Below, piece after piece: positions 29,038 through 60,860 of a stretch of DNA of 64,000 bases; position 1 is the first letter of the stretch, and each line of letters starts with the position of its first letter. This DNA comes from a virus (Duplodnaviria; Caudoviricetes), in IMG/VR virus record IMGVR_UViG_3300021959_007005. One strand, written 5' to 3'. The notes beneath the pieces were generated by a model. It had not been told where the DNA came from. It was given only the letters and a program-made list of their open reading frames with translations, and did not search any database. The translations under genes were made by a program, and so were the position numbers.

Positions 29038-29595
29038 ATGCAAGATTTTTATATACTACAAAGAACAGATAAGCCACTTAATGCTGAAGTAATTCAGCGT
29101 TGGTACTTAACTGTTGACATGCTTACACCAGAAGATGTTATTATGAGTGATGACGAAACTAATAGTTTTGTTATGGCTACACAAGCTGATTCGTATTTGT
29201 ACTTAATACCGCTAGTAAGACATCTTACTGCTAACGAAGCAGAAGTAATTGTTGAAGGGTATATGAGAATTGCAGATCATGATTTTCAAATAGAATCAAG
29301 TAACGTATATCGTGTAGATGCAGACTTTGGTCATCCTTTTGATTATGACATTGATTTAGACGAAGGTGCTCGTAGTATATTAGAAGATACATATTCAAGA
29401 CAGCAACATAATGCTTGGATACAAGACAAGCAACACAAAGGCTGGCGCTACGGGTTAAATTTAAGTATGCAAGAAAAAACTCATCCAGCAATGCGTCCCT
29501 GGGACGATTTACCAGAGTCTTACAGAAAACAGCCAAGTGCAGATAATAAACAACTAGTTGATTTTTATGCTAGTAATGTAAGCAAATTTAAATAA
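29038..29595 (+). CDS. Protein with C-terminal RyR (ryanodine receptor repeat) domain
   Basis: HNAWIQDKQHKGWRYG...KTHPAMRPWDDLPESYRK fits the RyR-domain pattern H..W...K...GW.YG.....K.HP.L.P...L. Confidence 0.75.
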   Translation: MQDFYILQRTDKPLNAEVIQRWYLTVDMLTPEDVIMSDDETNSFVMATQADSYLYLIPLVRHLTANEAEVIVEGYMRIADHDFQIESSNVYRVDADFGHPFDYDIDLDEGARSILEDTYSRQQHNAWIQDKQHKGWRYGLNLSMQEKTHPAMRPWDDLPESYRKQPSADNKQLVDFYASNVSKFK

Positions 29596-29612
29596 CAATC
29601 TCCACTAAATAC

Positions 29613-29703
29613 GTGTGTCCAATAGTACTCATGAGAGGACTTATGCTGCACCACAGCGTAGCCCATAGAACGGGCGTAGGACTTCTTTTTAAGGAGAAAA
29701 CAA
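29613..29703 (+). ncRNA. Candidate structured cis-regulatory 5' leader, copy 1
   Basis: Follows TAAATAC; stems GTCC/GGAC, TATGCTG/CAGCGTA, GCCC-ATAGAAC-GGGC; near-identical to 30091-30182 with compensatory changes. Confidence 0.6.
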
Positions 29704-30075
29704 ATGGGAAGACCACTAAACAAAAGACACTTTGGCAATCCAGGTAATGATGGGTTCCAGATCAGGGTAACAGCAGACGTAGGTGCTGGCGCAAGCGCAG
29801 GTCATATTGTAAAGCAAACAGGCAGCAAGCGTTTTCTATGTGATGTAGGCGGAAGTGAAGCAGTTTGTTCATTAGGAGCAGGCGCACCAGGCGTAGGCGA
29901 AGTGAGAATTAACGTAACAGACAGTGCAGCAGGTACTTATGATGTTACTAAAATCTCAGGTAGAACATGTACAGTTAAACCACAGACAGGTACACAATTT
30001 GCTCAAGGCGATAAAGTTCCTTGGAACAAAATTGGCGCCGTGGTTAATGAAAGTGTTGTAATCGACTTTCTATAA
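29704..30075 (+). CDS. MGRPLNKR-family putative virion protein, paralogue 1
   Basis: AAGGAG SD; shares KQxGSKRFL, KISGRTCTV and GTQFA...KVxWN with 30183-30572. Confidence 0.75.
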   Translation: MGRPLNKRHFGNPGNDGFQIRVTADVGAGASAGHIVKQTGSKRFLCDVGGSEAVCSLGAGAPGVGEVRINVTDSAAGTYDVTKISGRTCTVKPQTGTQFAQGDKVPWNKIGAVVNESVVIDFL

Positions 30076-30090
30076 TTGCAGCATAAATAC

Positions 30091-30182
30091 GTATGTCCAA
30101 TAGTACTCATGAGAGGACTTATGCTGTACCCACAGCGTAGCGACTAGAACTCGCATAGGACTTCTTTTTAAGGAGAAAACAA
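30091..30182 (+). ncRNA. Candidate structured cis-regulatory 5' leader, copy 2
   Basis: Stems GTCC/GGAC, TATGCTGT/ACAGCGTA, GCGA-CTAGAAC-TCGC. Confidence 0.6.
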
Positions 30183-30572
30183 ATGGGAAGACCACTAAAC
30201 AAGAGAAATTTCGGCGCACGAGCAGACGCTGGTGCCCAAATTGCACCAGCCGCATACACTACCCAACTATTTGGTAATGCTCATATAATCAAGCAAAAAG
30301 GTAGTAAGCGTTTTCTAGTAGCAACTGCGCTGTCTGGGGTCGATCAACCAGACCAAATTTGCAAACTAGTAACGGATGTACCAGCTGCTACTGGTGAAAT
30401 GGTTATCAAATGTAAAGATAGTGTGAACGGAACTTACTTTGTAAGTAAAATTTCTGGTAGAACTTGCACAGTAGTAGCAGATTCAGGAACACAGTTTGCA
30501 TCAAAAACAAAAGTACAGTGGAACCTCAGTGCCGCTGAAGCTGGCGTATCAGTTATACTAGACCTAGCATAA
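30183..30572 (+). CDS. MGRPLNKR-family putative virion protein, paralogue 2
   Basis: Tandem paralogue of 29704-30075. Confidence 0.75.
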   Translation: MGRPLNKRNFGARADAGAQIAPAAYTTQLFGNAHIIKQKGSKRFLVATALSGVDQPDQICKLVTDVPAATGEMVIKCKDSVNGTYFVSKISGRTCTVVADSGTQFASKTKVQWNLSAAEAGVSVILDLA

Positions 30573-30590: not shown

Positions 30591-30637
30591 CCCTTAGTAA
30601 ACACATAAATACTTTAAAGTTTACTAAGGGTTTTTTT
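30591..30637 (+). terminator. Terminator-like hairpin with a late-promoter motif in its loop
   Basis: CCCTTAGTAAAC-acataaatactttaaa-GTTTACTAAGGG-TTTTTTT. Confidence 0.65.
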
Positions 30638-31291: not shown

Positions 31292-31666
31292 ATGAAAATT
31301 AATGAAGTGATACAAATAGTAGAAGAAGTTACGCTAGAAGATGATCAAGACTTCCATGAAGAATATGGCTATCTAGCATACAGCATTGATGAAAGTGATT
31401 TGTTCGAAGCAGAGTATCAAGGACGTAAAGTTAAACTAAACAAGCCAATGCGTGGCGATGTTAAAAAGTTTAAAGTATATGTTAAGAATAAAAAAGGCAA
31501 TGTTATCAAAGTTAACTTTGGACACGGTGGTACTAGTGCCAAACGTCCAACAATGCGTATACGCAAAAGCAATCCAAAAGCACGTAAGAGTTTTAGAGCA
31601 AGACATAATTGCGATAACCCAGGGCCAAAGACTAAGGCACGTTACTGGTCATGTAGAAAGTGGTGA
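31292..31666 (+). CDS. Conserved basic Cys-containing phage protein
   Basis: MKINEVIQIVEE tag; EAEYQGRKVKLNKP...KVNFG...RKSFRARHNC...ARYWSCRKW. Confidence 0.75.
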   Translation: MKINEVIQIVEEVTLEDDQDFHEEYGYLAYSIDESDLFEAEYQGRKVKLNKPMRGDVKKFKVYVKNKKGNVIKVNFGHGGTSAKRPTMRIRKSNPKARKSFRARHNCDNPGPKTKARYWSCRKW

Positions 31667-31667
31667 T

Positions 31668-32741
31668 ATGAAAGCTGAAGATTTAAGGTTACCTGCAGCC
31701 GCAGCAGGATTAAGAACAGGTACTTCATTTAAAAAAGGTGCTAAAGCGAGTGGACCAGTGAGTCAAGCTACTTACAATCGTGAAATGGGAGCTTTAGCAA
31801 GAAGTAAAACAGCCGTAAAACCAACAAAACAGATTCCAATGCCAGGGCGTGGTGTAAATGAACTTAAAATAGTTAAGCCTAATCCTAAGGATACCAAAGG
31901 TATTAAACGTAGTGATATGCCACAAGTGTCCAAAAAAGATTATCCAGAATTTTTTGAATACTTAAAATCTAACGGTGCTACTTTTGAGATGCAAAGAGAT
32001 ATTCCTGCTAACACATTCAAATCAACACAGGGTGAATTTAGCGATGCTGGTGTTGAGAGATCAATGACTAAACTACTCAAAGGTGCAAAAAAGAAACCAA
32101 TTATAGTTAGTCAAGACAACTATATTATTGACGGACATCACAGATGGTTAGTTGCTATGAACTTAGGCAACAGTACAGTTGACACAATAAAGATAAGCAT
32201 GGATGCAGATGAGTTGCTAGCACTAGTAAAAGCATTTAACAAAACAAGTTACAAAGACATTTACAGTGAAAAAATAGATAAATTTAATAAAGACGAACCA
32301 AACAAAAGTACAGTAGCAGTACCAGGTTACGGTACTATGAACATTGATAGTTTGATGAAAAATGTAATCGATCAAACAACACAAATGTTAACTCAGATGA
32401 AACAAGGCACACAGGGTTTTCGTAATGCAAATTATGCACTTAACAGTAATAAGGTGTTAGCAGCTAAAGTTGGGGCATTAGTACAAGCGTTAGATGACTT
32501 GCAGTCAATACGTAGTAAAGGCGGATCAAATAGTAGAAATATACAGCAAGAAGCAGAAAGCGATAATGAATTGCCAGTTGATGAAAATGCTATTATGTCT
32601 AAAATACAAGAATTTGAGAGCCAAGAATATGTTACACCAGAAGACGCTGACTTTATGAGAAGAGCTGTACAAAGTTTAACATCTGGTAGACAAACAATTA
32701 ATCCACAAGCTATACTACAGTTATTAACACTGGTATCATGA
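31668..32741 (+). CDS. Multidomain protein with ParB/sulfiredoxin-like domain
   Basis: True start probably the ATG at 31668; FKSTQ...KPIIVSQDNYIIDGHHRW is the ParBc/Srx signature. Confidence 0.7.
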   Translation: MKAEDLRLPAAAAGLRTGTSFKKGAKASGPVSQATYNREMGALARSKTAVKPTKQIPMPGRGVNELKIVKPNPKDTKGIKRSDMPQVSKKDYPEFFEYLKSNGATFEMQRDIPANTFKSTQGEFSDAGVERSMTKLLKGAKKKPIIVSQDNYIIDGHHRWLVAMNLGNSTVDTIKISMDADELLALVKAFNKTSYKDIYSEKIDKFNKDEPNKSTVAVPGYGTMNIDSLMKNVIDQTTQMLTQMKQGTQGFRNANYALNSNKVLAAKVGALVQALDDLQSIRSKGGSNSRNIQQEAESDNELPVDENAIMSKIQEFESQEYVTPEDADFMRRAVQSLTSGRQTINPQAILQLLTLVS

Positions 32742-33586
32742 AAGCATTTGAAATCATAAATGAACGTGTTCAACAACGTACACAGATTATGTATCATGGC
32801 ACTAGTACTAATTTAATACCTAGTATTAAGTCTAACGGATTATTAGCAACACCACCAAAGAAAACATATGATAAAGACACGTATGGTGCAAGTACTGCGA
32901 GTATGGGTGGTGTATATGTTGCTAGTGAGAAAGGCTTTGCATTAGAAGTTGCTCGTGAAGCAGTTGGAACACATGGTGGCGAAAAGGCACTAGTTACAAT
33001 ACAATATGTAAAAGGTTCAGGAGACCTTGACGAGGATGAAATAGTTGCTAGTATTAGTGATGCCGCCCAGCAAATAATGAGAAAACTGTCTGCTGACGCA
33101 CCTAATAAAAGACCAGATATCATACCAAGTGGAATGAAGTTTAAAGATGAGCCACCTGATCGTTATTCTGGAATGAGCTATCCAGATCAAGGATGGGCTG
33201 CTGATTGGATGGTTAGTAATATAGATAAATCCGCAACTCAAATCGCCACACGAACAATAGAAATACTACAGAAAAAATCCAAACCAAGTAAGCAAGCCAT
33301 TTCTATAGTAAAACAAATGGCAACTAAATTATTACAGTCAGCTAGTAAGGTTGAAGACGCATATGGCAGATCAAGAGCCATTGGCTTTGATGCGTATGAT
33401 ACTTTTAGAGAAAACATGGAAGATTTATTATCGGTATTAATGCAACAAGTTAATCCTGATACTGCTAATAAGAGTGCAGAATCAAGACGTATTAATAGAG
33501 ATGTAAAGTTTAAAGGTAAAACAAGAATACTACAAATTGAATCTCCTGTTGGCAATATTGTATATAAAGATGCAAATTTTAATTGA
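32738..33586 (+). CDS. Putative ADP-ribosyltransferase-fold protein
   Basis: MKAFEIINE tag, then MYHGTS...SIKSNGLL...GGVYVAS...A, typical of HY-clade ART/Tpt1-like strands. Confidence 0.55.
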   Translation: MKAFEIINERVQQRTQIMYHGTSTNLIPSIKSNGLLATPPKKTYDKDTYGASTASMGGVYVASEKGFALEVAREAVGTHGGEKALVTIQYVKGSGDLDEDEIVASISDAAQQIMRKLSADAPNKRPDIIPSGMKFKDEPPDRYSGMSYPDQGWAADWMVSNIDKSATQIATRTIEILQKKSKPSKQAISIVKQMATKLLQSASKVEDAYGRSRAIGFDAYDTFRENMEDLLSVLMQQVNPDTANKSAESRRINRDVKFKGKTRILQIESPVGNIVYKDANFN

Positions 33587-59654: not shown

Positions 59655-60860
59655 ATGGCAAACTTAGTAGTAATAGGAACCCAATGGGGCGATGAAGGCA
59701 AAGGCAAAGTAGTTGATTTACTAGCAGAACAAGCAGATGTTATAGTACGTTTTCAAGGAGGACATAACGCAGGGCATACACTGGTAATAGGTGACAAAGT
59801 TTTTAAACTTAGCTTACTGCCCAGCGGTATAGTAAGAGAAGATAAAGTTTCGGTTATTGGTAACGGTGTTGTATTGAATCCTTGGAAACTATTAGAAGAG
59901 ATTGAACTAGTACAGTCACAAGGTGTAAACATTGATCCTAGTAGATTGATGATTGCAGAAAACACTCCGCTAATTTTACCCTATCACCAAGCATTAGATC
60001 AGTCAAGAGAAGAAGTAACTGATAAAAAAATCGGTACTACTGGCAGAGGCATTGGTCCTGCATATGAAGATAAAGCAGGAAGACGTGCAATTAAAGTAGG
60101 AGATCTTAGAGATGATGAACTACTCAAACATAGACTAGCAATAGCCGCAGAGTATCACGACTTTGACCAACAACAGTTGTTTAATCAGCTAGCACATATC
60201 AAAAAACATGTATTACAATATGTAAATGATGTACCACTTTATCTAAATCAAAAGACTGACTTAGGATTTAATATATTATTCGAAGGCGCACAAGGAAGCA
60301 TGCTAGATGTAGACTTTGGCACTTATCCTTATGTAACAAGCTCAAACACACTAGCAGGTATGGCTAGTATAGGCTCAGGGGTACCGCATAATAAGATACC
60401 AAATGTAATTGGTATAACAAAAGCATACACAACTCGAGTTGGCGAAGGGCCAATGACGACTGAATTATTTGATGATGTTGGAGAGCATCTAGCAAGTGTA
60501 GGTAAAGAAAAAGGTACAGTAACTGGTAGAAGCAGACGCTGTGGATGGTTTGATGTATCACAAGTAAAACGAACATGTATGTTAAATGGTGTTACTGGCA
60601 TAGCATTAATGAAAATAGACGTACTCGATAAACTCGAGACTATTAAGATTTGTACTGACGTACACAACGGAATACCAGTGTATGAAGAGCTACCTGGTTG
60701 GTGTACTAGTACAATAGGTATAACTGATTATTCAGATTTACCAAGACTTGCTCAAGAGTATATTAACCGTATTGAGCAATTAACACAAACCGAAGTAGTT
60801 TTGATATCAACTGGACCAGAAAGAGATCAAACTATTTTATTACAAGATTCTTTCTTTTAG
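59655..60860 (+). CDS. purA: Adenylosuccinate synthetase
   Basis: QWGDEGKGK, RFQGGHNAGHT, IGTTGRGIGPAY.DK, FEGAQG..LD.DFGTYPYVTSS, GTVTGRSRRCGWFD. Confidence 0.95.
   Translation: MANLVVIGTQWGDEGKGKVVDLLAEQADVIVRFQGGHNAGHTLVIGDKVFKLSLLPSGIVREDKVSVIGNGVVLNPWKLLEEIELVQSQGVNIDPSRLMIAENTPLILPYHQALDQSREEVTDKKIGTTGRGIGPAYEDKAGRRAIKVGDLRDDELLKHRLAIAAEYHDFDQQQLFNQLAHIKKHVLQYVNDVPLYLNQKTDLGFNILFEGAQGSMLDVDFGTYPYVTSSNTLAGMASIGSGVPHNKIPNVIGITKAYTTRVGEGPMTTELFDDVGEHLASVGKEKGTVTGRSRRCGWFDVSQVKRTCMLNGVTGIALMKIDVLDKLETIKICTDVHNGIPVYEELPGWCTSTIGITDYSDLPRLAQEYINRIEQLTQTEVVLISTGPERDQTILLQDSFF

Follow-up and report, generated by a model that had tools for sequence, protein, structure and literature searches.

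Two tandem genes for paralogous virion proteins in an uncultured marine jumbo phage are each preceded by a structured leader RNA. Both leaders are members of the known RNA family freshwater-2 (RF02980) and act as the cis leader of a single gene, an assignment in which we have high confidence. The leaders and genes are located in the window, by which we mean the whole stretch of 64,000 nucleotides that was analysed. With respect to the catalogue entry, the new elements are the phage origin of the RNA, its late-promoter context, the virion-protein family that it precedes, an optional closing helix (P0), and the tandem double copy.

Organization of the Locus

The leader-gene pairs form a two-gene unit. 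The features of the locus are listed below, where plus denotes the strand shown.

Ending at 29595: RyR-domain gene, upstream of leader 1
29605–29703, plus: leader 1 including its box, about 90–100 nt, preceding paralogue 1
29605–29611, plus: late-promoter-like box CTAAATA, copy 1, homologous to the family's (A/T)TAAATA box
29617–29620, plus: GUCC, copy 1, where the transcript is predicted to start; in the fold, it forms the 5′ strand of P0, the optional closing helix
29625–29706, plus: freshwater-2 RNA, copy 1 (RF02980, 66.4 bits; our own model R1, 78.6 bits)
29625–29640, 29642–29660, and 29661–29675, plus: hairpins P1, P2, and P3 of copy 1
29679–29696, plus: GGAC of copy 1 (29679–29682), the 3′ strand of P0, then the CUUCUU...AAGGAG hairpin over the SD, in the minimum-energy fold
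29691–29696, plus: SD of copy 1 (AAGGAG), downstream of the spacer, with the AUG at 29704
29704–30075, plus: ORF of paralogue 1, 123 aa, MGRPLNKRH...
30083–30182, plus: leader 2 including its box, preceding paralogue 2
30083–30089, plus: late-promoter-like box ATAAATA, copy 2, 8 nt past the stop codon of paralogue 1
30095–30098, plus: GUCC, copy 2, 5′ strand of P0
30103–30185, plus: freshwater-2 RNA, copy 2 (RF02980, 71.7 bits; R1, 89.7 bits)
30103–30118, 30120–30139, and 30140–30154, plus: hairpins P1, P2, and P3 of copy 2
30158–30161, plus: GGAC of copy 2, with the SD at 30170–30175 and the AUG at 30183
30183–30572, plus: ORF of paralogue 2, 129 aa, MGRPLNKRN...
30591–30637, plus: intrinsic terminator closing the two-gene unit, with a 12-bp stem (30591–30602/30619–30630) and a T7 run

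The fold of the terminator has an energy of −18.1 kcal/mol (z −3.4). Leaders 1 and 2 are identical at 90 of 99 positions (90.9%), whereas identity is 47% between the two proteins and 59.3% over the remainder of the coding DNA. An earlier reading of this DNA, made without database searches (the sequence-only reading), had noticed nearly identical leaders in front of diverged MGRPLNKR paralogues, and these values bear it out.

Other genes of the window include a phage DNA polymerase gene, a gene for a CCA-adding enzyme (3 kb downstream of the leaders), and ParB-like genes. The only DNA similarity to cultured phages (69–83% identity) was located at 31415–31667; the matches, annotated as “HVA1 family protein”, were to Pelagibacter phages Aegir, Kolga, and HTVC111P and Roseobacter phages CRP-901/902. 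The matching stretch lies inside a 124-aa ORF (phrog_7595); this ORF overlaps the predicted start of the next one, whose product has ParB-like matches. The ORF at 59655–60860 matched phrog_1211, “2-aminooxy adenylosuccinate synthetase” (E 4e-120), and is PurA- or PurZ-like. A 282-aa ORF at 32738–33586 gave a weak match to the PARP catalytic domain (PF00644, E 0.005) and, judged from this match, may encode an ADP-ribosyltransferase.

Identification of the Leaders as Freshwater-2 RNAs

The Rfam scan of the window gave exactly two matches above gathering (49.9 bits for RF02980). Both were to freshwater-2, and both copies matched the model at full length with the scores listed above. The sequence-only reading had named this search as a check and had implied that the element was novel; the novelty did not survive, since the leaders belong to a family that is already catalogued and that a plain Rfam scan finds.

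RF02980 is of the Rfam type Cis-reg. Its model comprises three adjacent hairpins and, behind them, a U-rich spacer and AAGGAGAAAACAAAUG, with the SD and the start codon of the gene inside the model. Model positions 70–84 align to AAGGAGAAAACAAAUG of both genes in the window, so that the element is directly upstream of the ORF, and the conserved UUAUGCNG...CNGCGUAG and the P3 loop NUAGAAC are present in both copies. The family and the window leaders therefore share the same three hairpins, UUAUGC...GCGUAG, UAGAAC, and the SD and AUG within the model, and no structural difference was found in the core.

The freshwater-2 motif reportedly originates from the screen of Weinberg et al. in 2017 (NAR). 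To our knowledge, its public description names no classified organism and no gene function. A literature text search for “freshwater-2” returned unrelated papers only, and the word “freshwater” does not occur in the main text of Weinberg et al. 2017 (PMC5737381).

The manA RNA motif (RF01745) is, like freshwater-2, an orphan structured RNA family, but its fold is unrelated and it is absent from the window. In one contig that also carries a Gp23 capsid gene (L014:2147–2353), manA (79.3 bits) and freshwater-2 share a single 400-nt gap, with manA immediately upstream.

Homologous Leaders and Covariation

We checked the upstream regions of eight homologue contigs. RF02980 was above gathering in six and just under it in two (44.5 and 48.5 bits), and the matches upstream of all eight end at the true ATG. 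A scan of IMG/VR with a pattern of conserved letters found at least 120 viral contigs, giving 93 unique leaders among the matches listed. Our own covariance model (R1) gave 98 matches in 97 sources among the matches listed, with one match per locus and two in the window. Among the genomes of 185,579 species (GTDB), the pattern matched 18 times; only two of these matches were real, and each of the two lies on a MAG contig that may represent mis-binned phage DNA.

Covariation was determined in an alignment of 96 distinct leaders from viral and metagenomic contigs, among the matches listed. In this alignment, which was fitted to the model and thus leans towards structure, pairing was kept in 90.4% of the cells, two-sided changes occurred in 12 of the 17 pairs (405 cells), and the covariation score was 0.552 against 0.139 in shuffles, with none of 500 shuffles reaching 0.552. 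Controls with slid partners scored 0.096 or less. The two-sided changes were distributed over all 6 pairs of P1, 2 of the 7 pairs of P2, and all 4 pairs of P3. P1 is the variable hairpin, and P3 consists of a 4-bp stem and the invariant 7-nt loop NUAGAAC. P2 is nearly invariant in this set, most of which was recruited by a pattern in which the letters of P2 and of the P3 loop are fixed; its U·G wobble was kept in 95 of 96 rows (among the matches listed), and one P2 position alternates between G-C, U-A, and A-U. Loci found through the protein (L002, L008, L012, L019, and L028) keep the conserved letters with small changes.

The two copies in the window differ in the same manner. In P3, copy 1 has GCCC-AUAGAAC-GGGC and copy 2 has GCGA-CUAGAAC-UCGC, with two compensated pairs and an unchanged UAGAAC loop, and P2 (UAUGCUG/CAGCGUA) has an extra U-A pair in copy 2. 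Both differences had been read from the letters in the sequence-only reading, which proposed a structured cis-acting leader with internal covariation and suggested collecting homologous leaders as a further check. The strong covariation in the 96 leaders confirms that the leader is a structured cis-acting RNA.

The likeness of the leaders could also be explained by recent duplication or gene conversion only, with no functional RNA involved. The copies are in tandem, and the leader possibly served as homology for cassette exchange, as in the relative G001 described below. However, the same core and compensatory changes are found in about 100 independent phage contigs, and the covariation result refutes this explanation, which retains practically no probability. 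That the two leaders are nearly identical requires no special explanation, because the core leader sequence is kept across phages whose proteins share only 25–50% identity. Gene conversion is not needed either, since the R1 score of leader 2 equals that of the L001, L018, and L023 leaders.

Putative Late Promoter and Expression

The late promoter of phage T4 has a TATAAATA-like box some 6 nt ahead of the transcript start and is without a −35 element. A TAAATA box was located 14–38 nt before P2 in 91 of 93 leaders among the matches listed, and CTAAATA (copy 1) and ATAAATA (copy 2) are at the position homologous to this family box. In the window, 18 of 37 (A/T)TAAATA boxes were 8–120 nt before ORF starts, compared with 3.5 ± 1.8 at random positions. 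The leaders behind such boxes in the window are mostly 15–50 nt in length, and the two freshwater-2 leaders are unusually long. By analogy with T4, the predicted transcript start would be about 6 nt past the box, that is, at GUCC in the window and within 2–3 nt of P1 elsewhere. Each leader very probably constitutes the untranslated 5′ end of a phage mRNA of the late class, with a putative T4-type late promoter box upstream.

Marine metatranscriptome libraries from three studies cover 66–88% of the window, as assembled contigs in which DNA carry-over is possible. These contigs break at the repeated leader because the assembly branches there, and the metatranscriptomes thus say nothing on the transcript start or the RNA level. 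In one RNA-library contig (run X1, depth 34), Illumina adapter sequence directly adjoins position 29628, which is in P1 of leader 1; this single observation may represent a defined RNA end or a reverse-transcription stop.

The Gene Family Behind the Leaders

An ORF starting with M(G/A)R(P) was found behind 133 of 134 pattern matches among the matches listed, and the remaining match was without such a start. The first codons vary synonymously (GGA/GGT/GGC, AGA/CGT/CGC, and CCN), which indicates that the MGRP start is kept at the protein level and not for RNA pairing. The ORFs behind the leaders encode 116–463 aa and constitute one family, with 1424 clusters at 50% identity. All 68 close protein homologues were metagenomic; they include paralogue 2 of the window itself, which was found on a 305,533-base contig. 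The loci of relatives adjoin T4-type Gp23 capsid genes or gp9/10 baseplate genes. A metagenomic protein of 7433 aa (P0080) contains 38 stretches matching the family profile, the best of which covers profile positions 53–105.

Pfam and PHROGs contained no family for the protein, and nothing was found in a PDB sequence profile search with the family, in a tblastn search of paralogue 1 against 50,697 phage records, or in a search of viral contigs with back-translated peptide patterns. PF09956 (Phage_cement_2) did not reach gathering, with sub-threshold matches in 6 of 34 members (best E 4e-4); the leads to a capsid cement or decoration role are weak. The AlphaFold (AF2) model of paralogue 1 (pLDDT 90) consists of two tandem small β-barrels. 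Among solved structures it resembled only generic SH3/Tudor/KOW barrels (Foldseek E ≥0.15; VIA Z ≤4.6). Predicted viral structures matched well, with E values down to 2e-9, and included two proteins of the Agrobacterium jumbo phage Atu_ph07.

The profile search gave AUZ95257 and AUZ95225 as the Atu_ph07 homologues, with computed masses of 35.15 and 52.32 kDa, respectively. The accessible portion of the published virion proteome of this phage lists gp498 at 35.16 kDa and gp466 at 52.32 kDa (PMC6102473). AUZ95257 is thus gp498 and AUZ95225 is gp466 by mass, and the gene-order offset from the tail fibre gp472 also fits. For gp498 and gp466, 23 and 21 peptides with coverages of 75.5% and 62.8%, respectively, are reported, and these values are among the highest in that portion of the table (PMC6102473). 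The high coverage of the homologues in the virion proteome indicates that the family is an abundant virion protein, and the description of the two genes as virion-type in the sequence-only reading is upheld by this route.

Each of the two Atu_ph07 genes is preceded by an ATAAATA box and a short leader without structure, and each encodes the MGRP start. Neither has freshwater-2; no RF02980 match above 21.7 bits was found in Atu_ph07. The homologues also keep a basic RQxGxRRY motif. The retention of MGRP and RQxGxRRY without the leader indicates that these conserved protein features do not exist for the RNA.

Copy Number and the Tandem Pair

Each of five large viral genomes (180–525 kb, three of them ≥90% complete) contained exactly one RF02980 match and exactly one gene of the family, adjacent to it; the window has two family genes, the tandem pair, and no others. 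The cis action of the element is confined to a single gene family, a conclusion that we hold with little doubt, and this exclusivity points to gene-specific control. The presence of one leader and one gene in each of the five genomes also makes the tandem pair unusual.

The close relatives L018, L019, and L023 have a copy-1-type gene only. The nearest relative found, G001, has a single copy-2-type gene behind the upstream flank of copy 1. In this relative (L001; G001:C1:13817–14280), a single leader joins the upstream flank of copy 1 to a copy-2-type P3 and gene, a junction whose sequence suggests cassette exchange or a deletion by way of the conserved leader. The tandem pair may have arisen by recombination through the conserved leader.

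Pairings Outside the Core

The minimum-energy fold of each window leader is a cloverleaf of P0 (GUCC/GGAC) and P1–P3, followed by a weak CUUCUU/AAGGAG hairpin over the SD. The z values of the folds were −1.7 and −2.55 for the two copies, and the GUCC/GGAC duplex of copy 1 had an energy of −6.5 kcal/mol (z −2.3). The sequence-only reading had proposed that GUCC pairs with either of two AGGAC copies, that CUUCU pairs with the SD, and that the leader forms a translational switch. GUCC/GGAC after P3 and CUUCUU/AAGGAG are formed in both window folds, but two AGGAC copies and the anti-SD are present in some subfamilies only. The features of the proposed switch are thus not universal; of 79 leaders tested, 36 were without the GGAC/CUUCU spacer. 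The remaining 43, which have a GGAC-type spacer, had a duplex energy modestly better than that of shuffled sequences (−3.7 vs −2.2 kcal/mol). A closing helix that would join the 5′ flank to the 3′ spacer showed no family-wide excess by longest run (3.82 vs 3.78), and L142 and L172 have a long closing helix of different composition that is apparently compensated. It is plausible that P0 and the SD masking are lineage-specific additions and not part of the core.

A further helix, in which UGUG/UAUG was thought to be mirrored by CGUA/CAUA, was rejected. The changes are two separate transitions, and the UGUG/CGUA helix cannot nest with the GUCC/GGAC helix, is absent from relatives, and is not conserved.

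The conserved nucleotides at the helix junctions and the Rfam type Cis-reg would suit a riboswitch, in which the three-hairpin core binds a small molecule and alters access to the SD or the start codon. In 87% of the cells, moreover, the P2 loop CCCA and the UGGG at the start codon are complementary. The 3′ side of this pairing never varies, however, and the P2-loop/AUGGG pseudoknot showed no covariation; among four AUGGCA variants, one loop was fully compensated (GCCA), two partly, and one not. The expression platform is not conserved, and the controlled gene encodes a virion structural protein, for which there is no metabolic logic. We consider a riboswitch improbable.

The cloverleaf has also been considered as a tRNA-like mimic, or as a processed or packaged small RNA, that is cut or recognized by RNase P or the phage CCA-adding enzyme. 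The window leaders fold with four helices and a 7-nt P3 loop, the gene for a CCA-adding enzyme is 3 kb downstream, and the adapter junction at 29628 in the single RNA-library contig would agree with a cut. However, ARAGORN found no tRNA genes in the window, the closing helix is absent in about half of the family, and the RF02980 model also takes in the SD and the AUG of the downstream gene. Neither the T-loop nor the anticodon-loop consensus is matched by the loops; only the overall shape is similar. Such a role is very improbable, and the small-RNA proposal of the sequence-only reading found no support.

Possible Mechanisms

Our best guess, which is tentative, is a translational operator that binds a candidate protein partner on a structured, protected 5′ end. 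P2–P3 would be the operator, bound either by the virion protein itself in its unassembled state or by some other factor, from the late phage or from the host. Once bound, the protein would be positioned 10–25 nt from the SD and tune translation, and the structured 5′ end would also protect the mRNA. In the lineage of the window, the 4-bp GUCC/GGAC helix would close the three hairpins into a cloverleaf, with the strong, conserved ribosome-binding site (AAGGAGAAAACAAAUG) behind it. The invariant U·G of P2, the fixed P2 sequence, and the invariant UAGAAC loop point to a specific partner and not to a generic hairpin. The subfamily-specific occurrence of the SD masking and the closing helix argues against an operator in general.

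A pure mRNA stabilizer and translation enhancer, which blocks 5′-end-dependent decay, leaves the A-rich SD region free, and involves no regulator, is a possible alternative that comes close behind. P1 or P0 starts within a few nucleotides of the predicted transcript start, the SD region is unpaired in many subfamilies (e.g., L037), the SD and its spacing are strong and conserved, and the product is an abundant virion protein. The 5′ UTR of Escherichia coli ompA and the leader of T7 gene 10 are 5′-terminal leaders of this stabilizing or enhancing kind. They resemble the window leaders in their base-paired 5′ end, strong SD, and very abundant product, but they are without a sequence-invariant multi-hairpin core conserved across distant genomes. 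A generic protective role leaves unexplained the invariant P2 sequence, the fixed U·G wobble, and the invariant P3 loop, and also the absence of the element from every other late gene in the five whole genomes.

The operator has an autogenous form, in which the unassembled MGRP protein binds P2–P3 of its own mRNA and shuts off translation. Binding would occur via the invariant basic N-terminal arm and the KQKGSKRF patch, and the contact between the CCCA of the P2 loop and the UGGG at the start codon would possibly be part of the closed state. Autogenous operators are known in phage T4 (the gene 32 pseudoknot, the gene 43 hairpin, and the RegA sites), and the scaffolding protein of P22 exerts feedback on its own synthesis. 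As in the window, these systems have a structured 5′ leader beside the SD of a single phage gene, and gene-specific control is plausible. They are, however, unrelated to the window leaders in sequence and fold, product binding is only hypothetical here, and the gene here is a late structural gene and not a replication gene. The persistence of the protein motifs in the leaderless Atu_ph07 genes and the acidic nature of 62% of the family members also argue against autogenous binding, and we consider this form unlikely.

Significance

Freshwater-2, an orphan motif, is now tied to the late promoters of T4-like and jumbo phages and to a single gene family per genome, and the cultured-phage homologues of this family are among the best-detected virion proteins in the available part of the Atu_ph07 proteome. 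Freshwater-2 thus becomes a case in which the post-transcriptional control of a structural gene of a phage can be tested. If the autogenous reading were true, the synthesis of an abundant virion protein would be coupled to assembly in T4-like and jumbo phages.
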